Part shown: positions 4-58,732 of the stretch, in pieces | How the letters are laid out: each line of letters begins with the position of its first letter | How positions within the stretch are numbered: position 1 is the stretch's first letter | Assembly: GCA_964480945.1 (NCBI GenBank) | Contig: CAYZRX010000002.1 | Coordinates: 5,009 to 69,008, forward strand | Source of the DNA: an uncultured Ignavibacteriaceae bacterium | GTDB lineage: Bacteria > Bacteroidota > Ignavibacteria > UBA10030 | Length of the DNA: 64,000 nucleotides | Reading direction: 5' to 3' | Made by a program: the position numbers and the translations under genes | The notes under the pieces: model-generated | The model's input: the letters and a program-made list of their open reading frames with translations, nothing else | The model's database searches: none | Told to the model about the DNA's origin: nothing

Positions 4-732
4 ATGATTGGCTTAAGGGACTATTTACGGCTGGAGGGGCTGGCGCTTCGGTTGACGCCGCTGAAGGGGCAGGGTTATGCGAACAACCTCAATGAATTTC
101 GAATGAGGGCCAACCTCTTCACGGACGTCAAGACGCCCTCGAAAACCCCACAGCTCGGTTTTCTCTGGCGCGGACTTCAGGATAGCACGACCTACTTTGA
201 TGAAGATGTCCGGCGATTGATGGCCAACTACCGTCAGGCGTTCATCATGTTCGGGCAGCGTTATGTCAACGACAGGGGGCAGTGGGCGAAGGCAGAGGAG
301 ACCCTGGATCGGATGGAGAAGCTCATTCCACGAAACACCATCCCGATGGACTACAGAACGAAATCGTATGTCGCCAGTCTGTACTCCGCGGTCGGAAACG
401 ATAAACAGTACCGCGCACTCTCTTTCGAGATCATCAACGAGCTCAAGCCGATCGTCGAGCGGGGCGTCGCCGAGCCTCTCTCGTACGATAATCCGTTCGT
501 TCTCCTCCTCCAGACGTATGAGAATCTCCAGATGTACGATGAGGCGCTGAAGCTGGTGGATGTCATTCGCGCGACCTACGCCCGCGAGCCTGGCATCGAT
601 CAGGTCGCCAGCCAAATCCGGGGACGCATCAGGAGCGAGAAAACCTTGCTAGAACGGAAGGATTCGCTCGCGGCTGCAGCTTCCTCGTCGACCGCGCCAA
701 TTCAGAACCCGCCGGCAGCAAAAGGAAAATAG
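4..732 (+). CDS. C-terminal fragment of a larger protein whose 5' end lies outside the window; soluble C-terminal domain, possibly of a DUF2723/PMT-like membrane glycosyltransferase (weak guess from context with downstream MT and GT4 genes)
   Basis: ORF runs to position 4 with no upstream stop inside the window. Clean stop at 732. Next gene starts 3 nt later. No diagnostic motif recognised. Confidence 0.3.
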   Translation: MIGLRDYLRLEGLALRLTPLKGQGYANNLNEFRMRANLFTDVKTPSKTPQLGFLWRGLQDSTTYFDEDVRRLMANYRQAFIMFGQRYVNDRGQWAKAEETLDRMEKLIPRNTIPMDYRTKSYVASLYSAVGNDKQYRALSFEIINELKPIVERGVAEPLSYDNPFVLLLQTYENLQMYDEALKLVDVIRATYAREPGIDQVASQIRGRIRSEKTLLERKDSLAAAASSSTAPIQNPPAAKGK

Positions 733-6443: not shown

Positions 6444-7280
6444 TTGAGCGTTGCGGTTGGCAAGATCAAGATAGGTGACGGGGCACCGTTGGTGCTCATC
6501 GCCGGTCCGTGCGTGGTTGAGACCAGAGCGATGGTTCTCAAAACCGCTGAGCGCATTCTGCAAATCACGCGTCGTCACGGAATTCCCTTCATCTTCAAGT
6601 CCTCTTACAAAAAGGCAAACCGGACCAGTGCCCGGTCGTTCTCAACGATCGGCATCGAAGAGGCCCTCGCGATCCTCGCCGAGGTGAAAGAGCGATACAA
6701 TGTTCCCATCCTGACGGACATCCACACGATCGACGAGGTGGCGCAAGCGGCGGAGGTGGCTGACGTGCTGCAGATTCCGGCGTTCCTCAGCCGGCAAACC
6801 GACCTGCTTCAGGCGGCGGGACGCACCGGGAAGGTTGTGAACATCAAGAAGGGGCAGTTCCTCGCTCCGGCCGACATGAAAATGGCAGCGGAAAAGGTCG
6901 TTCTGACGGGGAACAAAAAAGTGTTGCTGACCGAGCGAGGCACGACCTTCGGCTACAATAATCTCGTGGTCGACATGCGGTCGCTTGCCATCATGCGGAA
7001 GACGGGGTTCCCCGTCGTGCTGGATGCGACCCATTCCGTTCAGCTGCCCGGGGGCGCCGGGACTCAAAGTGGCGGCCAGCCCGAGTTCATTTTCCCGATT
7101 GCCCGGGCTGGTGTAGCGGCCGGCTGCGACGCCCTCTTCGTGGAGACCCATCCGGACCCGCGGCGGGCGCTGAGCGACGCGGCGAGCCAGCTGAAATTGG
7201 ATTCGTTGGAGGAGTTGATCAGACAGATCACGGCGATCGATGCGGTCGTGAAAAAGACTGTCAAAAAGGGCCGGCCCTAG
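6444..7280 (+). CDS. kdsA: 3-deoxy-8-phosphooctulonate (Kdo-8-P) synthase
   Basis: Full-length similarity to KdsA: LIAGPCVVE, FKSSYKKANRTS, ILTDIH, VLDATHSVQLPGG. TTG start. Confidence 0.9.
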   Translation: MSVAVGKIKIGDGAPLVLIAGPCVVETRAMVLKTAERILQITRRHGIPFIFKSSYKKANRTSARSFSTIGIEEALAILAEVKERYNVPILTDIHTIDEVAQAAEVADVLQIPAFLSRQTDLLQAAGRTGKVVNIKKGQFLAPADMKMAAEKVVLTGNKKVLLTERGTTFGYNNLVVDMRSLAIMRKTGFPVVLDATHSVQLPGGAGTQSGGQPEFIFPIARAGVAAGCDALFVETHPDPRRALSDAASQLKLDSLEELIRQITAIDAVVKKTVKKGRP

Positions 7281-7292
7281 AAAAACCCGCGC

Positions 7293-7829
7293 TTGGCTGT
7301 GAAAGACTCAATTCGCTCAAAGCTTCGAAGAATCAAGGTCCTCCTGCTCGATGTTGACGGCGTCCTCACGGACGGAGGGATCTATTACTCTGCTTCGGGC
7401 GACGAGGCAAAGAAGTTCAACACACAGGACGGCTTCGGGATCGTGAAGCTTCAACAAGCTGGGATCAAGGTCGGTATCATCACGGGAAGGACCTCGGAGA
7501 TCGTAAAGCGAAGAGCGGAGGAGTTGGGCATTGATGAGGTCCATCAGAGCCTTGAGGAGAAGGTTCTCGCGTACGATGGGATCCTGGCCAAACTCAACGT
7601 GCGTGATGCCGACGTGGCGTACGTGGGGGACGATGAGCCCGACCTTCCGATCCTCCGGCGCGTGGGCTTTTCCGCCGCGCCTGCAGATGCGGCAGACGTC
7701 GTGAGACGATCCGTTGATTATCGGTGTAAGCGGAACGGTGGCTCGGGGGCAGTCCGGGAGGTTATTGACCTCATACTCTCCGTTTCGAGGAAACGCGGCG
7801 ATGGCAAATCACGAAGAATTTCCACGTGA
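7293..7829 (+). CDS. kdsC: 3-deoxy-D-manno-octulosonate 8-phosphate phosphatase (HAD superfamily IIIA)
   Basis: LLLDVDGVLTDGGIYY (HAD motif I) and VAYVGDDEPDLPIL (motif IV). Size matches KdsC. Confidence 0.8.
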   Translation: MAVKDSIRSKLRRIKVLLLDVDGVLTDGGIYYSASGDEAKKFNTQDGFGIVKLQQAGIKVGIITGRTSEIVKRRAEELGIDEVHQSLEEKVLAYDGILAKLNVRDADVAYVGDDEPDLPILRRVGFSAAPADAADVVRRSVDYRCKRNGGSGAVREVIDLILSVSRKRGDGKSRRIST

Positions 7830-8568
7830 GTTGACGGCCCAGGAGCGGGACCTCTTGCTCTGGCTTCTGCCCGCAGATCGCTCGGGTTATCTGGAGTACC
7901 GCAAGCTGATCGGTCAATGGCAGGTCGTTGGAAGGGGGAGGAGGGGCGAGGGAAACTACATCCTGGCAGCTACGGCAGAGCGGCCGGATACCGAGATGTC
8001 TCTTCCGCCGTTGTTTGCCCTCGGGGTCGTGGAGTCTCGAGAGGCAAGTGTTTCCATCAGCCTCCGCGAGCGCATCGAGAATCAGGTTGAGTTCGAGATT
8101 GTGAAGCTTCAGGGTGAAGGCGTTCCCGATCGGCTGGAGGAAATTCGCCGATGGAGCTACTCCACCTGGCTTCCATCGCAGCCATGCCCCGCGTGCGGCC
8201 GCTCGGTCCGGGGAGTCCCAATGGCCACGGCTGGCGGCCAGAAGATGGTCCTCGCGATCTGTGCGAAGGATAAGCGGTTGTGGATCTACGAAGAAGCTTC
8301 GGGCGTGAACCATCTTATTCCCGTAACTAACTTCTACAACGAGCTGATGCTCGAGAAGAATGTACGGGATCCCGAAGTTGCGCTTGATTCAAAGAGGCTT
8401 TTCACAGATCTGAGCTCTTGGACGGACGCGGAGCTTCTTCGAGCGTTTGCCGCGTACAACAAGCTGCGCACGAAGGTCAAACTGGAGTCGCCGATCCTTG
8501 TTCCACAGGAGCAGAGACCCTCGTGGGTCCGGCGCTTAGTGAGATCGATCTCACCCCGACAGGGGTGA
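7801..8568 (+). CDS. hypothetical protein with CPAC motif, embedded in the kds/lpt cluster
   Basis: Track ORF 7714..8568 overlaps kdsC. Internal Met (MANHEEF...) at 7801 gives a 29-nt overlap with the kdsC stop. No recognisable family. Contains CPACGRS. Confidence 0.45.
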   Translation: MANHEEFPRELTAQERDLLLWLLPADRSGYLEYRKLIGQWQVVGRGRRGEGNYILAATAERPDTEMSLPPLFALGVVESREASVSISLRERIENQVEFEIVKLQGEGVPDRLEEIRRWSYSTWLPSQPCPACGRSVRGVPMATAGGQKMVLAICAKDKRLWIYEEASGVNHLIPVTNFYNELMLEKNVRDPEVALDSKRLFTDLSSWTDAELLRAFAAYNKLRTKVKLESPILVPQEQRPSWVRRLVRSISPRQG

Positions 8569-8624: not shown

Positions 8625-9614
8625 ATGAGCGTATCGATCGAAAAAGGAAAAGAAGTCATACGCATCGAGACGCAGGCAGTTGCCGCACTTGAACCCAGGA
8701 TCAACGGGAGCTTCGAGGCGGCGGTTGAGCTCATCATGGCCTGCAGGGGGCGGGTGATCGTGACGGGAATGGGGAAGTCCGGTGTGGTCGCGCGAAAGAT
8801 CGTCGCGACGATGAACTCAACCGGAACCGCGTCCGTTTTCCTCCATCCTTCCGATGCCGTCCACGGTGACCTGGGGATGGTGCGGCAGGAGGATGTGGTC
8901 ATCTGCATATCGAAGAGCGGCGACACGGATGAGATCCGTGAGTTGCTGCCGATGTTTCGGCACATAGGCGTCAAGGTGATCTCGATGGTCGGCAACATCT
9001 CGTCGCATCTCGCCAAGAAGAGCGACATCGTCCTGGACATCAGCGTGAAAGAAGAGGCGTGCCCGCTCGATCTCGCGCCGACAGCCTCGACGACCGCCAC
9101 GCTCGCGATGGGGGACGCACTGGCGATCGCGCTGCTTCACAGGCGAGGGTTCACCAGGGAAGACTTCGCGATGTTCCACCCCGGCGGAAACCTGGGCAAA
9201 CGTCTTCTCCTCCACGTGGAAGAGATGATGGTCGCGGGAGCTGGCGTTCCGGTCGTGCGTGAGGAGGTCCCCCTCTCGGAAGCCATCGTCGAGATGACCT
9301 CGAAACGCCTCGGCGCGACGTGCATCGTCAACGGCTCCGGAGCGCTGCGAGGCATCATCACCGACGGCGACCTTCGCCGGCTGCTTCAACGGACGAAGGA
9401 CATAACGAACGTCACCGCGGCCGAAGCGATGACCAAGAATCCAAAGACGGTCCGGAAGGGCTCTCTCGCAGCCACGGCCCTCGAGGAGATGGAATCGTAC
9501 AATATTACGCAGCTGGTGGTCGTCGACGAAAACCAGCATCCCGTCGGCATGCTCCACCTCCATGACCTTGTGAAAGCGGGGTTGGGAGGAGACTCTTCTG
9601 GAGAAGATTCGTGA
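8625..9614 (+). CDS. kdsD: arabinose-5-phosphate isomerase (KpsF/GutQ family; SIS domain plus tandem CBS)
   Basis: SIS motif VIVTGMGKSG. C-terminal CBS pair (ATCIVNG...GIITDGDLRR; ITQLVVVDE). Start moved to Met 70 of the track ORF (MSVSIEKG...) to give a 329-aa product. Confidence 0.85.
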   Translation: MSVSIEKGKEVIRIETQAVAALEPRINGSFEAAVELIMACRGRVIVTGMGKSGVVARKIVATMNSTGTASVFLHPSDAVHGDLGMVRQEDVVICISKSGDTDEIRELLPMFRHIGVKVISMVGNISSHLAKKSDIVLDISVKEEACPLDLAPTASTTATLAMGDALAIALLHRRGFTREDFAMFHPGGNLGKRLLLHVEEMMVAGAGVPVVREEVPLSEAIVEMTSKRLGATCIVNGSGALRGIITDGDLRRLLQRTKDITNVTAAEAMTKNPKTVRKGSLAATALEEMESYNITQLVVVDENQHPVGMLHLHDLVKAGLGGDSSGEDS

Positions 9615-10150
9615 GACCGAGTCCGCTTCCCGTCCTTCTGGTTTTGCTTTGGACGCTCGCGTTCGGTTGTGAGGAAAAGATCAAGCCGACGGTTCTGCCG
9701 GGCCTCGACAGCAAGACACTGCCGCAGCAAGAGAGCTGGAACAGTTCCGTCGTTCTTTCCGACTCCGGAAGGACGAAGGCGGTGATCTATGCGGGGCGCA
9801 TCCGGGAGTTTGAGAGCCCGCGCGAGACATTGCTGGATCAGAACATCACGGTCCATTTCTATGGGGAGGATGGGAACGAGACTTCCGTGCTCACTGCCCG
9901 CGAGGGCAAAGTCGACGAAATGACGAACAACCTCGAGGCGTCGGGGGATGTTGTCGTCGTCTCGAACGACAGCACCCGCCTGCACACGGAGAAGCTCTAC
10001 TGGGACAACAAGCGGCAGCGTGTGCACACTCCGGACTACGTCCTCATTGTTTCCCCCAAGGAGAGGGTGGAGGGAAAAGGGCTTGAGTCGGATCAACAGC
10101 TTCGCAACTATCGCATCTTCAGAGTGACGGGGGAGTCGAGGGCGGACTGA
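9611..10150 (+). CDS. lptC: LPS export system protein LptC-like (lipoprotein-anchored)
   Basis: Position between kdsD and lptA/lptB. Size 179 aa. Lipobox LAFGC. OstA-fold-like beta-rich sequence. GTG start overlapping the kdsD stop by 4 nt. Confidence 0.55.
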   Translation: MRPSPLPVLLVLLWTLAFGCEEKIKPTVLPGLDSKTLPQQESWNSSVVLSDSGRTKAVIYAGRIREFESPRETLLDQNITVHFYGEDGNETSVLTAREGKVDEMTNNLEASGDVVVVSNDSTRLHTEKLYWDNKRQRVHTPDYVLIVSPKERVEGKGLESDQQLRNYRIFRVTGESRAD

Positions 10151-10176: not shown

Positions 10177-11451
10177 ATGAAGAGTCTGAGTATTGCCATC
10201 CTCGGTATGCTCGCTGCAAGCGTTGTGCAAGCGCAGGGAAACAGGTTGATTGAGGTGAAGTCTGCCGACGTTTTGAACGTCCGCTTCATCGGTGGTCAGG
10301 AGGTGCGGGAGTTGATCGGGCATGTTCACGTCATTCAATCGTCGCCGGGAGAAGTGGTGAAGATCTGGTGTGATTCAGCCCTTCGGTACATGGAGACGAA
10401 CAAGATCGAATTGTTCGGGGACGTGAAGCTCGTGCGTGACAGCGTGACGTTGTTGTCCGACGAGGGGGTCTACTACGGGAATGAGCGCAGGGCGGAGATG
10501 TTGAAAGGGGTCCGGTTGACGAGGGGAGAGTCGATCCTGACGTCAAGATCCGGTGAGTACTTCGTCGAGGAGAAGCGAGCGCACTTCAGGGGCGATGTGC
10601 ACGTCGTCGACTCGACTTCCTCGACTTGGTCCGATGCACTGACCTATTTCGAGACCGACGAGAAGTCGATCGCGGTCGGGAATGTGCGGGTCTACAATCC
10701 CGAGAACAGCCTCACGGTCTTCGGCGACTCCCTCATCCACTTTGAGAAACTCCGCTACACGCTCGTTCCGCGCCATCCGACGATGGTGCAGGTCGATACC
10801 TCGTCGAGCGGTGCACTTGACACGATGGTGGTCGTCAGCGAGGTGATGGAGACCTATCAGGACAGCGTGCCGCGATTCGTCGCGCGGGGCAAGGTCGCCA
10901 TGGTGAGAACCGACCTGGCTGCCGTCTGCAAGGAAGCGACCTATCTGCTGAAGCGTGACCGCATCGTGTTGCGCGGCGAGCCGGTGGTCTGGCACGCGGA
11001 GAACCAGCTCAGCGGAGATTCCGTCGTCATCACCACGGCGGACCGCAAGCTTCAGAGCGTCTACGTCAGCGGCAGAGCCGTGGCGATCTCGAGGGCGGAT
11101 TCGCTCTTGAAGCAGCGATACGATCAACTGACCGCGCGGGAGATCACGATGTTTTTTGCCGGCGGCAAGATCGGACACATTGATGCCGAGCGGACCGCAA
11201 CGAGCCTGTACTATTTGTTTGACGAAGGCGAGCCGAACGGCGCGAACAGGTCCAGCGGTGATCGCATCGTCATGGAGTTTCAGGATGGGAAGATGGACCA
11301 GATCAGGATCATCGGAGGGGTGGAAGGGAAATACTTCCCTGAGGCGATGATCGCAGGACGGGAGCCGGAGTACAATTTGGACGGTTTTCGATGGATCACC
11401 AGTCGCCCCAAGCGACAGCATCTTCAGATCGTGAACGCACAGTATGAGTGA
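10177..11451 (+). CDS. lptA: OstA/LptA-family periplasmic LPS transport protein (extended, 424 aa)
   Basis: Signal peptide MKSLSIAILGMLAASVVQAQG. Repeated OstA_N-like beta-jellyroll segments (VKLVRDSVTL..., GDVHVVDS..., GNVRVYNP...). Located immediately upstream of lptB. Confidence 0.55.
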   Translation: MKSLSIAILGMLAASVVQAQGNRLIEVKSADVLNVRFIGGQEVRELIGHVHVIQSSPGEVVKIWCDSALRYMETNKIELFGDVKLVRDSVTLLSDEGVYYGNERRAEMLKGVRLTRGESILTSRSGEYFVEEKRAHFRGDVHVVDSTSSTWSDALTYFETDEKSIAVGNVRVYNPENSLTVFGDSLIHFEKLRYTLVPRHPTMVQVDTSSSGALDTMVVVSEVMETYQDSVPRFVARGKVAMVRTDLAAVCKEATYLLKRDRIVLRGEPVVWHAENQLSGDSVVITTADRKLQSVYVSGRAVAISRADSLLKQRYDQLTAREITMFFAGGKIGHIDAERTATSLYYLFDEGEPNGANRSSGDRIVMEFQDGKMDQIRIIGGVEGKYFPEAMIAGREPEYNLDGFRWITSRPKRQHLQIVNAQYE

Positions 11452-12253
11452 TATGAACGTGAACGAACAACAACAGCCTGTGGTTCGGGTCTCGCCGGAA
11501 GCGACGCCTCCGAATGGCGAGACGCTTCTTCGGTCCGACGGGCTGGTGAAGCGCTATAAGAAGCGGACGGTCGTCAACCAGGTGACAATCCAAGTGCGGC
11601 AAGGGGAGATCGTCGGTCTCCTGGGCCCGAACGGTGCCGGAAAGACCACCACGTTCTACATGATCGTCGGGATGATCCGGCCCAACGCGGGCAGGGTCTT
11701 CATGGATGGGGTCGAGGTCACCGCCCTCCCGATGTACGAGCGGGCCCGGATGGGAATCGGATACCTTCCGCAAGAGGCGTCCGTGTTTCGCCGCCTGACC
11801 GTCCGTGAGAACCTCCTCGCCGTTCTCGAGCTCAGCCGTCTTCCGAAGAAGGAGCAGGAGGAAAAATGCGACAGGTTGCTTGAGGACTTCGGCCTGACGC
11901 ATCTCGTGAAGAACAAAGGCTATGAGCTCTCCGGGGGAGAGCGACGGAGGACGGAGATCGCCCGCTCTCTCGCTTTGGATCCGAAGTTCATGCTGCTCGA
12001 CGAACCGTTCGCCGGGATCGATCCGATAGCCGTCGAAGACATCATGCGAATCGTCTCGAAACTCAAGGAGAAGAACATCGGCGTGCTCGTGACCGATCAC
12101 AATGTGCACGAGACCCTCTCGATCACCGATCGCTCGTACCTGCTCTTCGAGGGCAAGATCCTGAAATCCGGCACGGCAGAATACCTCGCGAACGATCCGG
12201 AGACCAGAAAGCTTTACCTGGGCGAGAAGTTCAAGCTGGATCGCTATCAGTAA
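11444..12253 (+). CDS. lptB: LPS export ABC transporter ATP-binding protein
   Basis: Walker A GPNGAGKTT. Signature LSGGERRRTEIAR. Walker B FMLLDEPFAGIDP. 269 aa. Confidence 0.85.
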   Translation: MSDMNVNEQQQPVVRVSPEATPPNGETLLRSDGLVKRYKKRTVVNQVTIQVRQGEIVGLLGPNGAGKTTTFYMIVGMIRPNAGRVFMDGVEVTALPMYERARMGIGYLPQEASVFRRLTVRENLLAVLELSRLPKKEQEEKCDRLLEDFGLTHLVKNKGYELSGGERRRTEIARSLALDPKFMLLDEPFAGIDPIAVEDIMRIVSKLKEKNIGVLVTDHNVHETLSITDRSYLLFEGKILKSGTAEYLANDPETRKLYLGEKFKLDRYQ

Positions 12254-12292: not shown

Positions 12293-13309
12293 ATGGTCGT
12301 CGTAACGGAACCCGGCGCATCCGAAAAACAGATTGAAGAAATTATCCGTGCGCTGCACGAGCATGGGTTCGATGTGCACCGCTCCACGGGCATGCAACAA
12401 ACAGTGCTGGGCGCGATCGGCGTCCAACCTGAGTTCGACCATCGCCAGATCGAGCTGTTGCCGGGGGTGGCCGAAGTCCTCCGCATTACGGAGCCGTATA
12501 AGCTTGCCAGCAGGACGTTCAAGCGTGAGGGCTCGGTCTTCGACGTCGGTGGAATAAAGATCGGGGGGGATGATGTGGTGGTGATGGCGGGCCCATGTTC
12601 GGTCGAAAGCGAACGACAGGTTCTCGCGGTGGCGGAGAGCGTGATGAAGTCCGGCGCGAAGATCCTGCGGGGTGGGGCGTTCAAGCCGCGGACATCGCCC
12701 TATTCTTTTCAGGGCCTTGGTGAAGAGGGGCTGAGGTTTCTTCGAGCGGCGGCGGACGAATACAAACTTAAGGTGATCACCGAGGTCATGGACAAGAGCC
12801 AGATCGATCTCGTCGAGAAGTATGCTGATATCCTCCAGATCGGCGCTCGGAATATGCAAAACTTCACGTTCCTTAAGGATCTGGGCAAGGCGTCGAAGCC
12901 TATCATGCTGAAGCGCGGCCAGGCGGCCACCATTGAGGAATGGCTGATGTCGGCTGAATACATCCTCGCCGGCGGGAACCATCAAGTGATCCTCTGCGAG
13001 CGAGGAATCCGGACGTTCGAGACAGCCACGCGCAATACCATGGACGTCGGGGCCATTCCCGTCATCAAGAAGAAAAGTCACCTGCCGATCGTTGCCGATC
13101 CGTCTCACGGTATCGGTATCCGAGACAAGGTGATCCCGATGGCGCGGGCGTGCGTTGCTGCCGGGGCGGATGGCATCATGGTCGAAGTCCACAACGATCC
13201 GGATCACGCCAGGTCTGACGGCGCGCAATCTCTTTTCCCGGAGCAATTTGCGCAACTCATGAAGGAAGTCCGCATCATCGCTGAAGCGATCGGCCGCAAG
13301 GTCGCGTAG
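12293..13309 (+). CDS. 3-deoxy-7-phosphoheptulonate (DAHP) synthase, type Ibeta with N-terminal ferredoxin-like regulatory domain
   Basis: KdsA/DAHPS Ibeta core ([32 protein letters not shown]) preceded by a ~70-aa N-terminal domain. 338 aa, like the Thermotoga-type enzyme. Confidence 0.85.
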
Positions 13310-13473
13310 TCGAACCAACCTGATCGACGGCTCGCAACCATCACCTGGGCTGAGCCCTGACATTCATCGAAGGAGATCGTATCCGAGCCGGACCGTGGCC
13401 TCTTCGGCCAACGACCGGCGTGCCGCTCAACAGGAGTTCTTCGGGTGGGTCTTCTTGAGTTCACGTATCTGCG

Positions 13474-14574
13474 ATGGCATCGAACTCATTCAAGCGCATC
13501 ACGATCATCGGCGTCGGCCTTATCGGCGGCTCGCTCGGACTGGCGATCAAAAAGCACTTTCCCGTTGCTCATGTCGTCGGCGTGGATCGCAAAGGTGTGC
13601 TCAAACGCGCTCTTGAGCGAGGGGCGATCGACATGGCCGAGACAAGTGTCGCTCACGCCGTCCAGGATGCCGACCTCGTGTTCCTCGCGACCCCGCTTTC
13701 TGTCATCGTGCGCCACCTGCCGATCCTCGCGAGATCCTGTAAACCCAGCACTGTCGTCTCAGACGTCGGGAGCGTGAAGCTGCAGGTCGCGCGTCGTGCA
13801 GCGAAGCAATTCCCTCACGGAAATTTCATCGGCGGTCACCCGATGGCCGGCGTCGAGCTGTCAGGGATCGAAGCTGCCCATCCCCTGCTTTTCGAGAATG
13901 CGATCTACGTCCTCGCGCCGACAACGTTGAATCCCCGCCCGCTCGTAAGACGATTGGGCAACTTTCTGGGAGAGCTCGGGGCGCGGGTCGTCCTGCTTGA
14001 CCCAAAGACGCATGATGAGGTTGCGTCGGCAGTCAGCCATCTCCCTCAGCTCGCCGCCGTGGCGCTTATGAATGTGGTAGGGCAACGCCACGGGACCGCC
14101 CGGAACTATCTTCGGCTCGCCGCGGGTGGATTCCGCGATATCACTCGTGTCGCTTCGAGCCGCTCGGATATCTGGAAGGACATCCTGGCCATCAACACGG
14201 GGGAGATTCAAAAATCACTGAGACTCCTGATTCGCGAGCTGGGTTTCTACTCTCGTCTTCTGCAGAAACAGTCGAAGTCACGCTTGATCTCTGAATTCGT
14301 TCATGCTCGTCGCCTCAGAAGCCGGATCCCGAAGACCATGAAAGGTTTCCTGCATCCTCTTGCCGAGGTGTACGTGTTCGTCCATGACAAGCCGGGGGCG
14401 CTGGCGAGATTGGCCACCGCCCTGGCGAGGGAGAAGGTCAACATCAAGGACATCGAACTGATGAAAGTCCGGGAGGGGAGCGGAGGCACGTTCAAGCTGG
14501 CGTTCGATTCGGCACAGATATCCAAACGCGCGGAGCGTATCTTGAAGAAAGCGGGGTTTGAAATTGGCGGATAG
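13474..14574 (+). CDS. tyrA: prephenate/arogenate dehydrogenase with C-terminal ACT domain
   Basis: Rossmann IIGVGLIGGS. TyrA motif GGHPMAG. C-terminal ACT-like VYVFVHDKPGALARLATALAREKVNI. Confidence 0.8.
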   Translation: MASNSFKRITIIGVGLIGGSLGLAIKKHFPVAHVVGVDRKGVLKRALERGAIDMAETSVAHAVQDADLVFLATPLSVIVRHLPILARSCKPSTVVSDVGSVKLQVARRAAKQFPHGNFIGGHPMAGVELSGIEAAHPLLFENAIYVLAPTTLNPRPLVRRLGNFLGELGARVVLLDPKTHDEVASAVSHLPQLAAVALMNVVGQRHGTARNYLRLAAGGFRDITRVASSRSDIWKDILAINTGEIQKSLRLLIRELGFYSRLLQKQSKSRLISEFVHARRLRSRIPKTMKGFLHPLAEVYVFVHDKPGALARLATALAREKVNIKDIELMKVREGSGGTFKLAFDSAQISKRAERILKKAGFEIGG

Positions 14575-14778
14575 GGGAGTGATCCATTTCTTTGCGCGAG
14601 AGGACTTGATCTCGTCGGTCTATTTTCATTTATTGGAACATGAGATTTCAAGGTTGGGAATTGTTGAGTTCGAATTACGGGATGTCACGGCAAACCATCC
14701 AAGTTCTATGGCATACATCTTGACGAGCGATGTCATCATCCAACGTGGCACGAAAAGAAAAAGGAGGTTGGTCCTACC

Positions 14779-15996
14779 ATGACCGTTAGCCAGCTTGCGA
14801 AATCAATTGCTGAATCGCCGACGCTGAAGCTGAACGAGGAGGCGAGGCTTCTGCGAGAGAAAGGCGAAGCAGTGGTCCACCTTGGCGCGGGTGAGCCGAA
14901 GAACAAGGCCCCCATCGCAGCGATCCTCAGCTCGGCCGCGAAACTGAACACAGGCGACATCAAGTACACTCCGACGGACGGCATCCCGTCTCTGAAGAAG
15001 GCGATCATCAAGTACACGGAGGAGAACTACGACAGGGTGGTGGCACCCGAGAACGTCATCGTCTCCGGAGGCGCCAAACAATCCGTCTTCAACGTCCTCT
15101 ACTCCATCATCAACCCGCAGGACGAGGTGATCATCCTCGCGCCCTACTGGGTCAGCTATCCGGAGATGGTCAAGATGGTGTACGGCGTACCGGTGATCGT
15201 GAGGCCGGAGGATGGCAGTTTCTATCCGCGCATGGAAGACATCCTCAAAGCGGTAAGCTCCTACACGAAAGCCATCATCGTCAACAGCCCGAACAACCCC
15301 TCGGGTGTTATGTACCCGGAGCAGTTCATCGCGGAGATTGTGGAGTATTGTGAGAAGAAGGGCATCTATGTGATCATGGATGATATCTACCACAAGCTCG
15401 TGTTCGACGGAAAGGCGTGGCCGTCGCCCTACAAGTTCACAAAGAAAGACGTCGAATCAACACATGTCATCGTCGTCAACGGGGTGTCGAAGCTCTACGG
15501 GATGACGGGCTTCAGGATCGGCTGGGCGATCTCGAACAGAAACCTCGTGACCATTATGTCCAATGTGCAGGGACAGATCACCTCGTGCACATCGGTGATC
15601 CTGCAAGCGGCCGCGGAAGGGGCGCTGACGGGACTCCAGAGTGTGATCGAGAGCCTCAGGCTGACACTCGAGAACAATCGGAACGTGATGATGCAGGAGC
15701 TGAATTCCTTTAGTGGAGTCAAGACGGTGAAGCCCGACGGGACGTACTACTGCCTGCCCGACTTCCGGGCGTACTCCAACGATTCCGTCAAGCTCTCCGA
15801 GCTTCTCTTGAAGAAAGCGCTCGTTGTGGCAGTCCCGGGGAAAGAGTTCGGCATGGAGGGACACCTCCGCCTGAGCTATGCAGGCTCCATCAAGGACATC
15901 ACCGAGGGTGTCGAGAGGATCAAGTGGGCGCTGGATCCGAGCTCACCGAATGAAATCTACATCGGCGACCGTAAACTTGTGAGGGACTGGCTATGA
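14779..15996 (+). CDS. class I/II PLP-dependent aminotransferase (aspartate/aromatic type)
   Basis: NGVSKLYGMTGFRIGW carries the PLP-lysine SK motif. PYWVSYP motif is shared with the downstream paralog. AGEP N-terminal motif. Strong AAGGAGG RBS. Confidence 0.8.
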   Translation: MTVSQLAKSIAESPTLKLNEEARLLREKGEAVVHLGAGEPKNKAPIAAILSSAAKLNTGDIKYTPTDGIPSLKKAIIKYTEENYDRVVAPENVIVSGGAKQSVFNVLYSIINPQDEVIILAPYWVSYPEMVKMVYGVPVIVRPEDGSFYPRMEDILKAVSSYTKAIIVNSPNNPSGVMYPEQFIAEIVEYCEKKGIYVIMDDIYHKLVFDGKAWPSPYKFTKKDVESTHVIVVNGVSKLYGMTGFRIGWAISNRNLVTIMSNVQGQITSCTSVILQAAAEGALTGLQSVIESLRLTLENNRNVMMQELNSFSGVKTVKPDGTYYCLPDFRAYSNDSVKLSELLLKKALVVAVPGKEFGMEGHLRLSYAGSIKDITEGVERIKWALDPSSPNEIYIGDRKLVRDWL

Positions 15997-19224: not shown

Positions 19225-19716
19225 TCACACCTTGCGCTGTCGATCCATCTTCTCTCTGAGCTTGCGATACACGTTTGCTGGGACGAAATCCTTCACATTC
19301 CCCTGGTGCCTCGCGATCTCCCGGACGATGCTCGAGTTCAGATAGGTGTACTTTTCATTCGGCATCAGGAAGACAGTCACCACGTGATGATTCAGGCGCC
19401 GGTTCATGAGCGCCATCTGCAACTCATACTCAAAGTCCGAAATGGCCCGGAGGCCCCGGACGATCGCCGTCGCCCGCTTCTTTCGAGCGTAGTCGACAAG
19501 CAAGCAGTCGAAGGAATCAACCTCGACCTGCTTGTAAGGGCGGACGGCTTCCTTGATCATTGCAAGGCGTTCCTCCTCAGTAAACAACGGCTGTTTGGCA
19601 GAGTTCCGTGCGATGGTAACGATGACCCTGTCGAATAACTTCATCGCACGCTCCAGAATGTCGAGGTGGCCGTTCGTGATCGGATCGAACGAGCCCGGAT
19701 AAATGGCGATTTTCAT
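19225..19716 (-). CDS. coaD: phosphopantetheine adenylyltransferase
   Basis: IAIYPGSFDPITNGHLDI (HxGH motif). ISDFEYE. 163 aa. Confidence 0.9.
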   Translation of the reverse strand: MKIAIYPGSFDPITNGHLDILERAMKLFDRVIVTIARNSAKQPLFTEEERLAMIKEAVRPYKQVEVDSFDCLLVDYARKKRATAIVRGLRAISDFEYELQMALMNRRLNHHVVTVFLMPNEKYTYLNSSIVREIARHQGNVKDFVPANVYRKLREKMDRQRKV

Positions 19717-19753
19717 TGGTATCCCTTCCTGCTATCTCTGTCTCGCTGAGACA

Positions 19754-20308
19754 TCATGGTTTCGATTTGACTTGGAGGATCAGGACGGTCGTTTGACCGA
19801 AGGGCTTCCGGAGGATATCGTACATCGCTGTGGAGAGCTCAATCTGCGATTCCTTGCTATGCTCCATGACGACATAGGATCCGTTTCTGACCACGGGGGA
19901 CTGGTAGATCGAGGTCGGGAGAGACCCGATTTCCTCGAGGCGATAGGGTGGATCCACAAACACGAGGTCGAAGCTCCTCCTCGTGTTCTTCAGAAACCAA
20001 AACACCTCGGCCGGATAGACGGTGCACTGGGGGCGGCAGCCGAGGGTGTCGATGTTTTTCTCCAGGATCTGGATCGATCCTCTCGCCTTGTCGACGAAGA
20101 CGACGTGCCGCGCGCCGCGGCTCAACGCCTCAAGGCCGAGACTCCCGCTGCCGGCGAAAAGGTCAAGAACCTCGATGCCCTCCAGGTCCAGGCGGTGGGA
20201 GACCATGTCGAAGATGGACTGCTTTGTCCGATCCGTCGTCGGACGCACGGAACGATCGCGTGCGCTCAGGAGCCTTCGTCCACGGAACTGCCCGGCGATG
20301 ATCCTCAT
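19754..20308 (-). CDS. rsmD: 16S rRNA (guanine966-N2)-methyltransferase
   Basis: MRIIAGQFRGRRL. LDLFAGSGSLGLEALSRGA. VFVDPPY (DPPY motif). Conserved rsmD-coaD linkage. Confidence 0.8.
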   Translation of the reverse strand: MRIIAGQFRGRRLLSARDRSVRPTTDRTKQSIFDMVSHRLDLEGIEVLDLFAGSGSLGLEALSRGARHVVFVDKARGSIQILEKNIDTLGCRPQCTVYPAEVFWFLKNTRRSFDLVFVDPPYRLEEIGSLPTSIYQSPVVRNGSYVVMEHSKESQIELSTAMYDILRKPFGQTTVLILQVKSKP

Positions 20309-21219
20309 TGCGATCGCAACGCCAACCCGATAGCGGCGGCGAACCGGGAGCTCTCCTTTACGTACGGTTCGTAGAGCTTCTTCGATGGGGAAAGATTCCG
20401 CACTGCGTTCAACAACAGCGTCTCGACCCCCGTTTCGCGTTGCACCTGTGATGCGGCCGCTGAGGAGACACCGACTCCGTACAGGAAGATCTTCGCGGGC
20501 GCTTCCAAACCGTCCTTTTCTTTGAGAAATCTGAGGTAGGCCACGGCGGTCTTTTTCAGCTCGTTCGAGGATTCGAGAGGATACGTGCGATAGTCCACGA
20601 GCTCTCCGCGCGCGAGGAGGCTTCCGTCGAGTCGGCCGGACCGCATTCCAAAGAGAGCGAGGTTGTCTTTTCCCAGTTCAGGGTAATTGAAGCGGAGAGA
20701 TTTCTCCGTGCTGAACTGGTCGATGTCGATCAGGTGCAGCTGGAGCCGCAGCTCGGTGACGGCCTTTTTCAGGAAGCCGATGATCCCTCGACGGACGGAA
20801 ATCAGCAGCATCCGCTTTGTCTTGCCTGCTCCCCACGGAAGGGGATGGAAATTGAGCAGGAAGTCTTTGAGGGGGGCGTTGGGATGGTATTGTTCGAACT
20901 CCCACTGCATGTAGGAAGTAAGCTCGTTCCCCTGGAGCGTTGCGTCGACCGGTATGATGTTGATGAACACCGGATCGGTCGGGAGGGCGAAAGAGATCTG
21001 CTTGCCGTGAACGCGGTTCTGCTTCATCAGTTCCTCCAGTTCGTACACAAACGTGTAGAGCTGGGGGTGGTTCGCGGAGATGGCTGTTGCGTGCGCGAAG
21101 TCCAGGGAGCTGGACCGTTCGCCGAGGGCGACGACGGACATCTTTTTTCCGTGCTCGACCTCAGCCAGCTGGAACTGTCCGCTGCAGAACGAGACCGCGA
21201 CGTGATGGGATGATTTCAT
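20305..21219 (-). CDS. hypothetical protein, possibly PilM/FtsA-like actin-fold protein
   Basis: 304 aa. C-terminal ...FLYGVGVS...NAVRNL...AAAIGLALRS resembles the PilM C-terminus. No Walker motifs. 4-nt overlap with the rsmD stop. Confidence 0.35.
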   Translation of the reverse strand: MKSSHHVAVSFCSGQFQLAEVEHGKKMSVVALGERSSSLDFAHATAISANHPQLYTFVYELEELMKQNRVHGKQISFALPTDPVFINIIPVDATLQGNELTSYMQWEFEQYHPNAPLKDFLLNFHPLPWGAGKTKRMLLISVRRGIIGFLKKAVTELRLQLHLIDIDQFSTEKSLRFNYPELGKDNLALFGMRSGRLDGSLLARGELVDYRTYPLESSNELKKTAVAYLRFLKEKDGLEAPAKIFLYGVGVSSAAASQVQRETGVETLLLNAVRNLSPSKKLYEPYVKESSRFAAAIGLALRSQ

Positions 21220-21735: not shown

Positions 21736-22908
21736 CTAGGAGAACGCGTCCTTTACCTTTTCAAAGAAACTCCTGGAATGGCCGTGCCGTTCTACCTCGT
21801 TCGGGGTGATGTGCTCAGACTCCCCGAGCTTCCTGAGGAGCTCTTTCTCGTCTGGGTTCAGCTTGGCGGGGACCCATATGTTGATCCTGACGAGCTGATC
21901 CCCCCGGCCGTGGCTGTTCAAATGGGGGATTCCGCGGTCTCGCATCCTCAGCAGCCGGCCGGCAGGAGTGCCGGGATCGATCGTCAGTTTCGCCTTGCCG
22001 GTGAGCGTCGGAATCTCGATTTCGCCGCCCAGCGCCGCCACGGGATAGCTGACGTTGAGATCATAAATGATGTCGTCACCGCTCCGGGTGAAGTACTGAT
22101 GCGGCTGCTCCTCAATCAGGACGATCAGGTCACCCGGCGGACCTCCTCTCTGGCCCGCGTTGCCCTGCCCGTGCAACGGGATGTAGTTGCCGTCGGTGAC
22201 ACCCGCGGGGACGTTCACTTTGATCGTCGTTTCGCCCGGCACGCGCCCTTCACCGCGACAGTTCGAGCACGGATCCTTGACGACGCGCCCCTCGCCGCCG
22301 CACGTCGGACACGCCGTGATGTTCACGAATTGCCCGAACATCGAGCGCGAAACCTGGCGCAACTCGCCCGTCCCGTTACACTGAGGGCACGTCGAGGAGC
22401 CCGTTCCGGGTCTTGACCCTGTCCCCTTACAGACGTCGCAGACCTTCTGCTTTCTGACTTTGATCTTCTTCTCGACGCCGAGCGCAATTTCCTCGAGCGT
22501 GAGCTGCAGCTTTACCTGGAGGTCCGAGCCCGGGATGCCCCGCTGGGCTCTGGATGATCGCCGGCTACGAGTTGAGGTTCCGAACATCTCGTCGAAAATG
22601 CCGCCGCCGAAACCGCTTCCGAAGATGTCACTGAACGTTGAAAAGATGTCGTTGATGTCGTGGAACTCGCGGTAGTTGGTGCCGCGCATGCCCTCGTGCC
22701 CGAACTGGTCGTACCGGCGCCGCTTCTCCGGCTCGCCCAGGACTTCGTACGCCTCTGCCGCCTCTTTGAATTTCTCTTCGGCCTCCTTGTTGCCCGGGTT
22801 GCGGTCAGGATGATACTTGAGAGCCATCTGGCGGTACGCTTTCTTGATCTCATCCTGTGAGGCGTTGCGGGAGACGCCGAGTATGTCGTAATAGTCCCGT
22901 TTCGTCAT
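21736..22908 (-). CDS. dnaJ: molecular chaperone DnaJ
   Basis: J-domain DYYDILGV...[10 protein letters not shown] region. Four CxxCxGxG zinc-finger repeats. 390 aa. Confidence 0.92.
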
Positions 22909-22914
22909 AGCGGG

Positions 22915-23547
22915 CTACGTTGTCGGCTTTCCGCTCGTCTCACCTTTCGCACTCGCCGGCCTCTCTTTGCCGGATCCTTCGACATTCCCGTGCTCGGTCG
23001 GAGGCATCGAGACGATCACTTTGGCGTGACGGAGGACGCGATCATCGAGCGTATATCCTCTCTCCACGACCTCGACGACCGTATGCGGGGGAACGTCATT
23101 GCGAGGGATTTGGAGAAGTGCGTCGTGGTAGTGAACGTCGAATTCTTTGCCGAGAGAGTCGATCTGCCTGACGCCCTGCATCTCCAGGAACTTCAAGAGC
23201 TTCAGGTGGATAAGTTCGATCCCCTTGACGAACGCCTCCGATTCCCTTCGATCCTTGCTCAGCTTCAACGAACGCTCAAAGTCGTCGACGATCGGCAGGA
23301 GCTCCTCGATGACATCGGCCTTGGCGTATCGTGTCGCCGAGGTCGATTCATTCTCGGCCCGCTTCTTGAAATTGTCGAACTCGGCAGCTTTCCGCAGCAG
23401 AAGATCCTTGTAGTACTCAACCTGCTTCTCAGCTTCTGCCAGTCTCTGAGCCTGGTCTTCGGAGGGCTGAATGCTCGGAGTTTCCACGGGCAGCTGCTCG
23501 GGTTGTTTCTGCTCAGCTTGATTTGGTGCTTGTTCCTGTTCTTCCAT
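22915..23547 (-). CDS. grpE: nucleotide exchange factor GrpE
   Basis: YYKDLLLRKAAEFDNFKKR. C-terminal GYTLDDRVLRHAKV. 210 aa. Confidence 0.88.
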   Translation of the reverse strand: MEEQEQAPNQAEQKQPEQLPVETPSIQPSEDQAQRLAEAEKQVEYYKDLLLRKAAEFDNFKKRAENESTSATRYAKADVIEELLPIVDDFERSLKLSKDRRESEAFVKGIELIHLKLLKFLEMQGVRQIDSLGKEFDVHYHDALLQIPRNDVPPHTVVEVVERGYTLDDRVLRHAKVIVSMPPTEHGNVEGSGKERPASAKGETSGKPTT

Positions 23548-23580
23548 ATTCTGAGAAATCTCGCTTGTTCGTTGTCCGAT

Positions 23581-24627
23581 TCACGCTTTCATCATCCGGG
23601 CGATCAGTTTGGCGACATGGTCAACCAACGGGATCAACTTTCCGTAGTCCATCCTCGTGGGTCCGATGATACCGACCCTCCCGGTGATGCCCTCGAGATC
23701 ATAGGTCGCCGACACAACACTGTATTCTCTTGCCTTCGAGTCTTTGTTTTCCTCTCCGATCGTGATCACGAAGTTCTTGTCCAGCTCCTCGTGCTTTTCG
23801 AGCAAATGGACAATGATGTCGTCGTTTTCAATGAGCTCGATGATGCTCCGGAAGTTCCTCGGGTCGATGAATTCAGGCTGCTCGATGATGTTCTGCGTCC
23901 CGGAAATATGGACTTTGTCACGGTCCTTCATATCATCGAACAATTGATCGACGGAGTCGATGAAGAGCCGGATCAGGCCGGTCCGCTCGTCCTGAACGTC
24001 TCGAGTCCGCTCGATAAACGTGTCACGAATCTCGCGGAGTGTCAACCCCGACAGTCGTTCGTTCAGGACTCGGCTGATATGCTCGAGATACTCGCGTTTG
24101 ATTTCGACGCCGACTTCCAGCATCAGGGTTTTCACAAGCCCGGAGCGAATCGAGATGACGACCAGCAATTTCGACGACGCGATCGGGATCAGCTCGAGCT
24201 TCTCAAAAACCCCGCTGCTGATGTGCGGTGATGAGACCACGCTGAGCTGCTTCGAAATTTTCCCCAGCAGTTTGGAGGTCTCGCGCAACAGTGAATCGGG
24301 GTCTGCCATTGTGGCAAGTTGCTGCTCGATCTCGACCTTCTCCCGCTCCGTGAGCTTCTGCATCTCCATCAGGAAATCGATGTAGTAGCGGTACCCAAGG
24401 TCCGTCGGCACCCGGCCGGCAGATGTGTGCGGGTGCGAGAGGTAGCCGAGATCCTCCAGGTCCGCCATAACGTTGCGGATTGTGGCGGGACTGAGCTGTG
24501 ACTCAAAGTGTCTGGAGATATAGCGAGATCCTACGGGGACGGCAGTCTGGATGAAATTGTAGACGACGTGCCGCAGGATGTCGCGCTCCCTGCCGTTCAA
24601 ACCTTCCGTTTTTGGTTGGCTGATCAT
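23581..24627 (-). CDS. hrcA: heat-inducible transcription repressor HrcA
   Basis: N-terminal RERDILRHVVYNFIQTAVPVGSRYIS winged helix. ATIRNVMADLEDLGYL. 348 aa. Confidence 0.9.
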   Translation of the reverse strand: MISQPKTEGLNGRERDILRHVVYNFIQTAVPVGSRYISRHFESQLSPATIRNVMADLEDLGYLSHPHTSAGRVPTDLGYRYYIDFLMEMQKLTEREKVEIEQQLATMADPDSLLRETSKLLGKISKQLSVVSSPHISSGVFEKLELIPIASSKLLVVISIRSGLVKTLMLEVGVEIKREYLEHISRVLNERLSGLTLREIRDTFIERTRDVQDERTGLIRLFIDSVDQLFDDMKDRDKVHISGTQNIIEQPEFIDPRNFRSIIELIENDDIIVHLLEKHEELDKNFVITIGEENKDSKAREYSVVSATYDLEGITGRVGIIGPTRMDYGKLIPLVDHVAKLIARMMKA

Positions 24628-39257: not shown

Positions 39258-39438
39258 CGATGCATCTCCCCATTGGTGTCGCAGGAGGAACGTTGCGCGT
39301 TGTGAAACGTGGTGAATAAGAAAAAGAGGCGATGAACATTACCAGAATATGGCTTGAATGTCAAGCTACTCTGAGCATACGCGAGCGGTTCGCTGCTCGG
39401 TTTCTCCCTGTGGTCCGGTTTTCTCCGCGAGCAGGCAT

Positions 39439-40095
39439 TCATACGATCACAAATGCCCGAACAGGAAAGCTGCCGAACTTCTTTATCTTGATCGGGACCG
39501 CGAAGAACCTGAAGCCCGAGTCAGGAACGGAACCGAGATTGCAGAGATGCTCTCCGATCGGGATATCCGCTGCGAGGAGGATAGAGTGTGCCGGACGTGC
39601 AGGATCGTTTGTATCGTCGATGTTGAGCGAGTCAATACCGACGAAAGCGGCACCGGAATCCCTCAGCCACTCCGCCGCGTCTTTCATCAAGAACGGGTGT
39701 CCGTCGAAATACTTCTCGGTTCCCCAGTATCTGTCCCACCCGGTGTTGATCAGCACGGCTTTCCCCCGCACTTCATGTTCCTGCAAGAGATTCCTGGCGA
39801 TGGCCGCGGGGCCGCCCTTCGTTCTTACGACGAGCCCCTCGAGATCGGCGAGCGAAGAGAGGGGGAGCTCTGCGAGGTCCTTCGCCCCCGGGTACCGATG
39901 GAATGGAGAATCAACGTAAGTCCCGGTGTTGGTCACCATCTCGATCTTCCCGATGCAGAACTCGGTCCCAGGAGCGTAGCGGCTTCGGGATCCCTCATGA
40001 GTGAGATAATCAGAAATCGTGGGGGCGGGCAGGCCTTTGTACGTGATAAGCCCGTCTTCGATACTGTGGCTCACATCGATGAACGTCTTGCTCAC
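39439..40095 (-). CDS. cyclase-family protein (arylformamidase/kynurenine formamidase-like, PF04199)
   Basis: GTYVDSPFH and VGIDSLNID motifs of the putative-cyclase fold. 218 aa. Confidence 0.7.
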   Translation of the reverse strand: MSKTFIDVSHSIEDGLITYKGLPAPTISDYLTHEGSRSRYAPGTEFCIGKIEMVTNTGTYVDSPFHRYPGAKDLAELPLSSLADLEGLVVRTKGGPAAIARNLLQEHEVRGKAVLINTGWDRYWGTEKYFDGHPFLMKDAAEWLRDSGAAFVGIDSLNIDDTNDPARPAHSILLAADIPIGEHLCNLGSVPDSGFRFFAVPIKIKKFGSFPVRAFVIV

Positions 40096-40343: not shown

Positions 40344-40427
40344 AGCGGCCTCCTCTCACGAACGGACACCGGCTGCTGTTTCGCGCATGCAGCCTTTTTC
40401 TTGTTCCGATGTGCAGTCCAAGCCGAC

Positions 40428-58688: not shown

Positions 58689-58732
58689 TCCCCAGCCTGC
58701 TCGAGCCGATCGTAACCTGAGAGCCGACCTCC

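Follow-up and report, generated by a model that had tools for sequence, protein, structure and literature searches.

A small, previously undescribed protein family fixed within the Kdo-synthesis and LPS-export operon of Ignavibacteria

Within a gene cluster for Kdo synthesis and LPS export, we found a gene of an uncharacterised family, here called X, that is always part of the operon and translationally coupled within it. Judged by its sequence, X is the founder of a small, previously undescribed family, and its gene context makes a role tied to Kdo/LPS biogenesis the best-supported reading. We suggest, with a probability of about 0.4, that X sits peripherally on the inner membrane and links the supply of Kdo to the assembly of LPS as an accessory or regulatory factor. 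Few essential envelope pathways have been studied as well as Kdo synthesis and the Lpt bridge, but nearly all of that work was done in Proteobacteria, and to our knowledge nothing is known of how other bacteria coordinate the soluble Kdo enzymes with the membrane steps. Its deep retention in the operon, lack of relatives, and likely membrane anchor make X a testable candidate LPS-biogenesis factor for the FCB group; if it is merely a lineage-specific accessory, the impact would be modest, as the family is small and its carriers are mostly uncultured.

Gene X and the operon around it

All coordinates refer to the window, the whole 64-kb stretch of DNA that was analysed (Table 1). The ORF of X begins with an ATG at 7801, a start backed by an N-terminal alignment of 30 homologues, and ends with a TGA at 8566-8568. 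A preliminary description of this DNA had recognised the ORF correctly and given its length as 256 aa, which includes the stop codon; the protein has 255. ORFs were intact in 79 X orthologues, 78 of them complete at 242-274 aa, and dN/dS (NG86, only pairs with dS < 1.2) ranged from 0.02 to 0.23. X is a genuine protein-coding gene under purifying selection, and these values satisfy the coding test that the preliminary description had set for it. GC content is uniform over the whole cluster, and on this ground a horizontal-transfer island was rejected.

Table 1. Features of the operon and of the X protein, in window coordinates
Feature	Position	Strand	Evidence
kdsA (Kdo-8-phosphate synthase), first gene of the operon	6444..7280	+	PF00793 DAHP_synth_1, E = 3e-71
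kdsC (Kdo-8-phosphate phosphatase)	7293..7829	+	TIGR01670, E = 4e-49, above family cutoff
Gene X, uncharacterised-family 255-aa cytoplasmic protein	7801..8568	+	ORF confirmed, homologues, dN/dS, AF2 model
N-terminal helical hairpin, X residues 13-39, ExxxLxWxLPxxxxGY motif	7837..7917	+	AF2 helices 13-22, 28-39
Gly/Arg-rich beta-hairpin loop GRGRRGEG, X residues 44-51	7930..7953	+	Between AF2 strands 41-45, 52-56
CPAC, X residues 129-132, first knuckle of zinc-ribbon-like site	8185..8196	+	Sequence
C-A-K-D, X residues 154-157, second knuckle (Cys154, Asp157)	8260..8271	+	C154, D157 invariant in A1
Basic amphipathic C-terminal helix SWVRRLVRSIS, X residues 241-251, putative membrane-targeting	8521..8553	+	AF2 helix, µH, motif
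kdsD (arabinose-5-phosphate isomerase, SIS + CBS)	8625..9614	+	TIGR00393, E = 3e-98
lptC	9611..10150	+	TIGR04409, E = 6e-22
lptA-like periplasmic LPS-transport protein, 424 aa	10177..11451	+	PF13100 OstA_2, PF03968 LptD_N
lptB (LPS export ABC ATPase)	11444..12253	+	PF00005 ABC_tran, E = 3e-36

The operon reads kdsA-kdsC-X-kdsD-lptC-lptA-lptB on one strand, and family matches to its neighbours bear out the earlier placement of X between the KdsC phosphatase and the KdsD isomerase. The overlaps reported earlier are likewise present, with 29 nt shared by kdsC and X (7801-7829), 4 nt by kdsD and lptC, and 8 nt by lptA and lptB. The cluster had also been called canonical, which it is not by the E. 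coli order, though the order is conserved in this lineage. Between X and kdsD lies a 56-nt gap if kdsD starts at its ATG; an alternative start at an in-frame GTG (8565) would instead give a 4-nt GTGA overlap with the X stop codon. We found no internal terminator or promoter beyond shuffle expectation in the operon in the window, and neither the X-kdsD gap nor the operon yielded an Rfam match or a structured RNA, so a regulatory RNA in the gap was dropped as a candidate. X thus shares its strand with the operon, has tight or overlapping junctions with the kds genes, and lies in a unit with no excess of terminators.

Sequence and fold searches

X had no family match in Pfam, NCBIfam, PHROGs, or PADLOC, and single-sequence and profile searches of PDB sequences returned only chance matches (E >= 0.4), in keeping with the earlier remark that it belongs to no recognisable family. 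The AF2 model is confident (pLDDT 89.9, pTM 0.84). Foldseek against the PDB gave a best hit of E = 0.07 and TM ~0.14, to the N-terminal barrel of the F1-ATPase, and against BFVD nothing meaningful (best E = 3e-3, TM 0.18). A confident model with no PDB neighbour makes X a candidate new fold and a target for structure determination. An anti-phage defence or phage protein was rejected on the empty PADLOC and PHROG searches and the BFVD TM of 0.18. No relevant paper turned up in our literature search on LPS genes of Ignavibacteria or on a gene placed as X is.

Conserved residues of the X body

In a set of 39 diverse family members, just two positions, W123 and F201, never vary. Those kept in 90% or more of sequences are mainly hydrophobic or structural, which speaks against an enzyme; four of them (E15, L23, P24, and Y30) belong to the N-terminal hairpin, and the others are G75, W161, N170, A215, and Y219. 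Many charged or polar residues are invariant in the Ignavibacteria clade, namely R9, R27, R47, R48, R89, E90, E99, R117, R137, D157, N220, and K225. In the Gly/Arg-rich loop, G46 and R47 to G49 as well as G51 are invariant in this clade and degenerate in the most distant members, while mid-distance members keep [R/H]89-E90, R137-E138, N170, and Y219-N220. Because these charged residues are invariant in the clade and several persist further out, X may contain a ligand-binding or catalytic site.

The CxxC motif noted in the preliminary description is present at residues 129-132, but it is not a family-wide feature. C129, C132, and C154 occur all or none: about 190 of 292 sequences have all three, about 183 of these together with D157, and the rest, about one-third of the family, have none. 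This pattern indicates that the cysteine site is structural rather than catalytic, and a catalytic or redox CxxC was rejected on the same grounds. We infer that most members use a putative Cys3-Asp metal site to stabilise the ribbon, although the site is dispensable.

The conserved charged residues also bear on the reading that X is a new-fold peripheral-membrane enzyme acting on a Kdo-pathway or Kdo-lipid A intermediate, whether as a lineage-specific modification or as a non-homologous stand-in for KdsB, or for KdsC where that is absent. The clade-invariant Arg, Glu, and Asp would fit a phospho-sugar or nucleotide ligand, and the putative membrane-targeting tail would fit lipid-linked substrates. 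The operon encodes KdsD, KdsA, and KdsC and no KdsB, and neither kdsB nor waaA was found in the 64-kb window. In 17 of 77 loci, as in a divergent lineage, the cluster lacks kdsC and reads kdsA-X-kdsD. However, there is not one polar residue that is invariant across the family, and distant members whose operon position is unchanged have lost the GRRGEG loop, R89, the cysteines, and H171. KdsC stands alongside X in 60 of the 77 loci. Specific enzyme identities fail as well: X matches neither PF02348 CTP_transf_3, as a KdsB CMP-Kdo synthetase should, nor PF06293, as a KdkA Kdo kinase or protein-kinase-like fold should, nor any HAD family, although the adjacent KdsC phosphatase is readily recognised by its own model, and no other Pfam or NCBIfam model fits. 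X also evolves like LptC and LptA rather than like the enzymes, with a median identity to the window protein of 48%, compared with 50% for LptC and 44% for LptA, and with 70% for KdsA, 70% for KdsD, and 76% for LptB. We therefore regard an enzymatic X as rather unlikely.

Distribution and conserved linkage

We found 213 homologues of X, each of ~255 aa, and in a set of 1.84 billion representatives the family accounts for 174 clusters (50% identity). A search from the divergent member P0249 returned only 9 clusters. Carriers are confined to Ignavibacteria and a second lineage, classed as Bacteroidota-type from adjacent Por_Secre_tail genes; they include Ignavibacterium-labelled genomes and one Melioribacter isolate, and a cluster look-up traced member P0220 to Melioribacter sp. 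OK-6-Me. The search across the FCB group that the preliminary description had proposed thus leaves X limited to Ignavibacteria and one related lineage.

In all 80 of the species-representative genomes, the gene directly 5' of X, on the same strand, is kdsA or kdsC. This neighbour is kdsC at 60 loci and kdsA at 17 (77 loci), and kdsA is found 5' of X at each orthologous locus whose contig extends that far. On the other side, kdsD follows directly in all loci that continue past X except one (L064), where lptC comes next. Median junction gaps over the 77 loci are 0 nt and +1 nt, and X overlaps kdsD by 4-8 nt in 30 of them. The same placement recurs on 8 further metagenomic contigs, which carry 6 very divergent members; 5 of these contigs belong to the second lineage, in which ispE, lptA, lptB, and aroF are no longer nearby and only kdsA-X-kdsD-lptC stay together. 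The homologues are accordingly not scattered, the outcome that the preliminary description had named as refuting its proposal.

We also observed that ispE and aroF are syntenic in many Ignavibacteria loci.

Since these two functionally unrelated genes share many of the same loci, part of the synteny may be inertia. Taken to its limit, this would make X a single ancestral insertion unrelated to LPS, held in place by synteny inertia and translational coupling, and the restriction of all carriers to one or two related lineages would agree with such an origin. Inertia does not readily explain, however, why X keeps its place, with kdsA or kdsC before it and kdsD after it, down to 25-35% identity, or why its placement was kept where ispE, lptA, lptB, and aroF had left and both flanks had been replaced. 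The junctions on either side of X stay within 0 to -14 nt, though the cluster lost kdsC more than once, and no copy outside the kds context occurs among 88 loci. A passenger gene with no part in LPS is, on this evidence, quite unlikely.

C-terminal tail and localisation

X has no transmembrane segment (maximum KD19 0.96) and, as described previously, no signal peptide. The AF2 model places a helix at residues 242-249 after a low-pLDDT linker, and the tail of the window protein is strongly amphipathic (µH(11) = 0.89). Mean µH was 0.64 for X tails, whereas shuffled tails reached 0.56 and internal segments 0.49. K+R make up 29% of the last 15 residues and D+E 3%, F is enriched 2.4-fold, and the mean net charge of the tail is +4. 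A Phi-Phi-x-[RK]-Phi motif lies 8-15 residues before the C-terminus in 177 of 268 distinct tails, compared with 36 ± 5.7 in shuffles (maximum 54), and 'FLKRL' is among its commonest instances. The tail is therefore terminal, helical in the model, and basic with spaced large hydrophobics, kept as a pattern and not as one fixed sequence, in the manner of MinD, FtsA, and FtsY, and X is probably on the inner membrane via this MinD-like tail.

A basic amphipathic tail could alternatively bind nucleic acid or an acidic partner. That X is a nucleic-acid-binding regulator of kds/lpt transcription or translation, combining a zinc ribbon with a tail of such positive charge, is nevertheless very improbable, because the zinc site is missing in about one-third of the family, fold searches found no HTH or other DNA-binding fold, the tail is Phe-enriched with the hydrophobic spacing of a lipid-binding helix and so more than merely basic, the operon holds no structured RNA, and an internal coupled position would imply expression stoichiometric with the enzymes, which is atypical of a repressor.

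Proposed role

The preliminary description had proposed a role for X in Kdo/LPS synthesis or its regulation outside the textbook pathway, and as X came through both the linkage and the coding tests, this is the reading we favour. In the accessory or regulatory factor that we propose, X would be soluble and cytoplasmic, with a helical hairpin at the N-terminus, then a beta-rich core that includes a zinc-ribbon-like element, and then a helical subdomain towards the C-terminus. A flexible linker would lead to the MinD/FtsY-type basic amphipathic helix, which may keep X at the inner membrane on its cytoplasmic side. At this site, most likely as a non-catalytic tether, scaffold, or regulator, X could couple the soluble KdsA, KdsC, and KdsD to Kdo transfer onto lipid A and to LptB2FG-LptC.

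A more specific and more doubtful form of this proposal is that X is a dedicated LPS-biogenesis component of unseen fold, needed for normal outer-membrane assembly in Ignavibacteria and allied lineages, that serves as the membrane tether of a 'Kdo metabolon' or as a sensor adjusting Kdo supply to LPS export. As such, X would recruit or regulate the Kdo enzymes where Kdo transfer and LptB2FGC loading occur.

Comparison with known systems

One likeness to known proteins is in the tail. The membrane-targeting sequence (MTS) of E. coli MinD is KGFLKRLFGG with a core of FLKRL (PMC5471200), and the lipid-binding helix of FtsY is KEGFFARLKRSLLKT (PMC3189734); X tails such as KKGILGRLFGG, KKNFLGRLFSK, and GFFKKLFK closely resemble both. 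As in MinD, FtsA, and FtsY, the element is terminal after a flexible linker, spans ~10-15 residues, and is Lys/Arg-rich with spaced Phe, Leu, or Trp. Only the tail is comparable, however; the rest of the protein shows no ParA/MinD ATPase, actin-like, or SRP-GTPase fold.

The putative metal site may be compared with zinc-ribbon domains such as those of Elf1 or the TFIIS type, but X would use Asp or His, not Cys, as the fourth ligand, its ribbon lies within a larger beta-rich domain, and one-third of the family keep the segment with zero cysteines.

LapB (YciM) is an LPS-assembly regulator of E. coli, a non-enzymatic inner-membrane protein at the cytoplasmic face composed of an N-terminal TM helix, TPR repeats, and a Cys4 rubredoxin domain. 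The role proposed for X would be of the same kind, that of a non-enzymatic LPS factor at the inner membrane with a Cys-based zinc element. We detected no homology between the two: X lacks a TM helix and any TPR or rubredoxin Pfam match, its predicted secondary structure differs, it has at most a dispensable Cys3-Asp site, and it sits inside the kds/lpt operon.

The operon itself resembles the E. coli locus kdsD-kdsC-lptC-lptA-lptB (yrbG-rpoN), where Kdo-synthesis genes and lptCAB likewise form one transcription unit with overlapping junctions, and kdsA lies elsewhere. That locus has no counterpart of X, whereas here kdsA comes first and X parts kdsC from kdsD.

Gene X and its operon

The unnamed gene X, which the preliminary description had placed between kdsC and kdsD in a run of Kdo and Lpt genes, was found as described, among neighbours that we named by curated family models (see table). 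The quoted overlaps also hold: kdsC runs 29 nt into X, kdsD 4 nt into lptC, and lptA 8 nt into lptB. GC content was uniform over the cluster, and no terminator or promoter signals within it exceeded shuffle expectation. The X/kdsD gap in the window is 56 nt if kdsD starts at ATG 8625; because a GTG at 8565 in the kdsD frame overlaps the X stop codon as GTGA (8565–8568), and many orthologous loci show the same 4-nt overlap at this junction, kdsD may start 20 codons further upstream, translationally coupled to X. The lptA-like protein combines OstA_2 with an LptD_N-like region, and its length of 424 aa, more than double that of E. coli LptA, suggests that the periplasmic bridge protein of this lineage is tandem or extended.

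Features of the kds–lpt cluster in the window and of the AlphaFold2 model of X
Feature	Position	Strand	Assignment
kdsA	6444–7280	+	DAHP_synth_1, E = 3e-71
kdsC	7293–7829	+	TIGR01670, E = 4e-49
X	ATG 7801 to TGA 8566–8568	+	ORF, 255 aa
kdsD	8625–9614	+	KpsF/GutQ family, SIS + CBS domains, E = 3e-98
lptC	9611–10150	+	TIGR04409
lptA-like, 424 aa	10177–11451	+	OstA_2 + LptD_N
lptB	11444–12253	+	
N-terminal helices	X residues 13–22, 28–39		AlphaFold2
Ten beta strands	between X residues 41 and 173		AlphaFold2
Helices	X residues 175–223		AlphaFold2
Low-confidence linker	between helices 175–223 and terminal helix of X		AlphaFold2
Terminal helix	X residues 242–249		AlphaFold2

Directly after lptB lies an aroF-type DAHP synthase gene with a ferredoxin-like N-domain (also in orthologous loci L005–L044), followed in the window by prephenate dehydrogenase-ACT and aminotransferase genes, the three within 12293–15996; the aroF adjacency is kept in many Ignavibacteria loci and absent in the divergent lineage described below. 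Elsewhere in the window are a conventional hrcA-grpE-dnaJ heat-shock operon (21736–24627, minus strand) and five more candidate ORFs of 223–473 aa without a Pfam family (4–732, with a weak TPR hint only; 19703–20374; 39358–40779; 41816–43042; 57933–58736). No tRNAs or Rfam families at gathering score were found in the 64-kb window (1–64000), nor did Rfam detect a cobalamin riboswitch near the B12-dependent class II RNR (28898–31681, minus strand).

Family and distribution of X

Homologues of X numbered 213 in a search of 5.8 billion proteins. Of the 120 listed, most are 250–265 aa long (range 222–266); they are 48–96% identical to X, carry no Pfam domain, and are all named 'hypothetical protein' at source. 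Of 79 orthologous ORFs taken from genomes representing different species, 78 are complete and span 242–274 aa, and Nei–Gojobori dN/dS was 0.02–0.23 in pairs with dS < 1.2. X thus behaves as coding sequence in the test proposed with the preliminary description and is a real gene under selection. The family is small: among 1.84 billion cluster representatives, an exhaustive HMM search picked up only 174 members, all single-domain proteins of about 220–270 aa or fragments, besides two longer entries, P0140 (296 aa) and P0139 (313 aa). The N-terminal extensions of these two are probably assembly or gene-calling chimeras, not true fusions; that of P0140 looks similar to the beginning of RNA 3'-phosphate cyclase (RtcA). 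Labelled sources are Ignavibacteria, Ignavibacteriales, Melioribacteraceae, and 'Bacteroidota' or 'Chlorobi' MAGs, with one Melioribacter isolate. A very divergent, cysteine-less subfamily of nine clusters lies on contigs carrying T9SS Por_Secre_tail genes, which points to a second, Bacteroidota-type lineage.

Conservation of genomic context

We placed the proteins that neighbour X in the window on 80 loci, drawn from different species-level genomes (X identity 34–64%), and, where sequence reaches, recovered the order ispE(-), kdsA, (kdsC), X, kdsD, lptC, lptA, lptB, (aroF). The gene directly before X is kdsC in 60 loci and kdsA in 17, and the gene directly after it is kdsD in every locus except L064 (341–1600), where no kdsD lies between X and lptC and X remains with the lpt genes though kdsD has moved. 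Median gaps at the junctions flanking X are 0 and +1 nt, with a 4–8 nt overlap in 30 of 77 X/kdsD junctions. The cluster lacks kdsC, so that kdsA directly adjoins X or overlaps it, in 17 main-set loci (L035, L041, L046, L050, L051, L054, L056, L063, L065, L066, L068, L071, L074, L076, L077, L078, L080) and in five further loci (L081, L083, L085, L086, L088); in these genomes, either kdsC has moved elsewhere or Kdo8P is dephosphorylated by other means.

Six distant members (P0249, P0251, P0255, P0225, P0281, P0285), about 24–26% identical to X where measured, were checked individually and all lie in kdsA-(kdsC)-X-kdsD-lptC. The second lineage keeps kdsA-X-kdsD-lptC, in which kdsA and X share 11 nt, but in wholly different surroundings, flanked upstream by DUF4397, MFS, and CoaE genes and downstream by UvrD; lptA, lptB, ispE, and aroF are not adjacent to the cluster. 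Homologues are therefore not scattered: kds/lpt linkage holds in all 88 loci, with no out-of-context copy among them.

Predicted structure and membrane association

The AlphaFold2 model, built with a 30-sequence alignment, is confident (pLDDT 89.9, pTM 0.84). In it, strands 137–143 and 148–154 are bracketed by CPxC (129–132) and C154-x2-D157. In 292 sequences of the family, the three cysteines occur together or not at all: about 190 have all three (about 183 of those with D157), about 100 have none at these positions, and one is intermediate. This pattern looks like a single predicted structural metal site that some of the family has given up, and led us to reject a catalytic or redox CxxC.

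The C-termini cannot be aligned as sequence, yet they have a common pattern. Their last 15 residues hold 29% K+R and 3% D+E, with Phe enriched 2.4-fold. Of 268 distinct tails, 177 contain Phi-Phi-x-[RK]-Phi, placed 8–15 residues before the C-terminal end, versus 36 ± 5.7 (maximum 54) in composition-preserving shuffles; in the protein body the motif occurs at 0.034 per 25 residues. Mean maximal hydrophobic moment is 0.64 in tails, 0.56 in shuffled tails, and 0.49 in internal segments. Tails such as KKGILGRLFGG, KKNFLGRLFSK, and GFFKKLFK (SWVRRLVRSIS in the window) are very similar to KGFLKRLFGG, which targets E. coli MinD to the membrane (PMC5471200), and to the helix by which FtsY binds lipid (PMC3189734). 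Neither a transmembrane segment nor a signal peptide was found in X. We infer that X is attached peripherally to the inner membrane, on its cytoplasmic side.

Proposed role of X

Many charged residues are invariant inside the Ignavibacteria clade, but only W123 and F201 are invariant across 39 diverse members, and positions conserved in at least 90% of these are mostly hydrophobic. Median identity over the 80 loci is 48% for X, matching LptC (50%) and LptA (44%) and not KdsA (70%), KdsD (70%), or LptB (76%). Together, these patterns favour, but do not prove, a role in binding or scaffolding rather than in catalysis; a semi-conserved polar set (R47, [R/H]89-E90, E99, R137-E138, N170, Y219-N220, K225) could line a ligand site. 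The findings are most simply explained if X were translated together with the soluble Kdo enzymes and anchored at sites of Kdo transfer to lipid A and of LPS extraction by LptB2FGC, where it would act as a tether, scaffold, or regulator coupling Kdo supply to membrane LPS assembly. The preliminary description had read a non-textbook role tied to Kdo/LPS from gene position, and every contextual test run supports such a role at the level of sequence.

We consider it unlikely that X is instead a new-fold peripheral-membrane enzyme, possibly replacing a step for which the operon has no gene, though no kdsB or waaA lies within the 64-kb window and the cluster often lacks kdsC. That X is functionally unrelated and held in place by inertia is less probable again: ispE and aroF are syntenic within Ignavibacteria and lost from the neighbourhood in the second lineage, where X is kept, which counters synteny by inertia alone. 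A nucleic-acid-binding regulator is the least probable of these readings.

Comparison with known families

When tested for membership, X fell outside KdsB, KdkA, the HAD phosphatases, LapB, and defence and phage families. No literature description of X was found, and the only modules it would share with known proteins are a putative zinc-ribbon-like element and a MinD-type tail; neither its family nor the fold predicted for it thus belongs to a known kind. Its operon represents a version, specific to this lineage, of the familiar kds–lpt arrangement.
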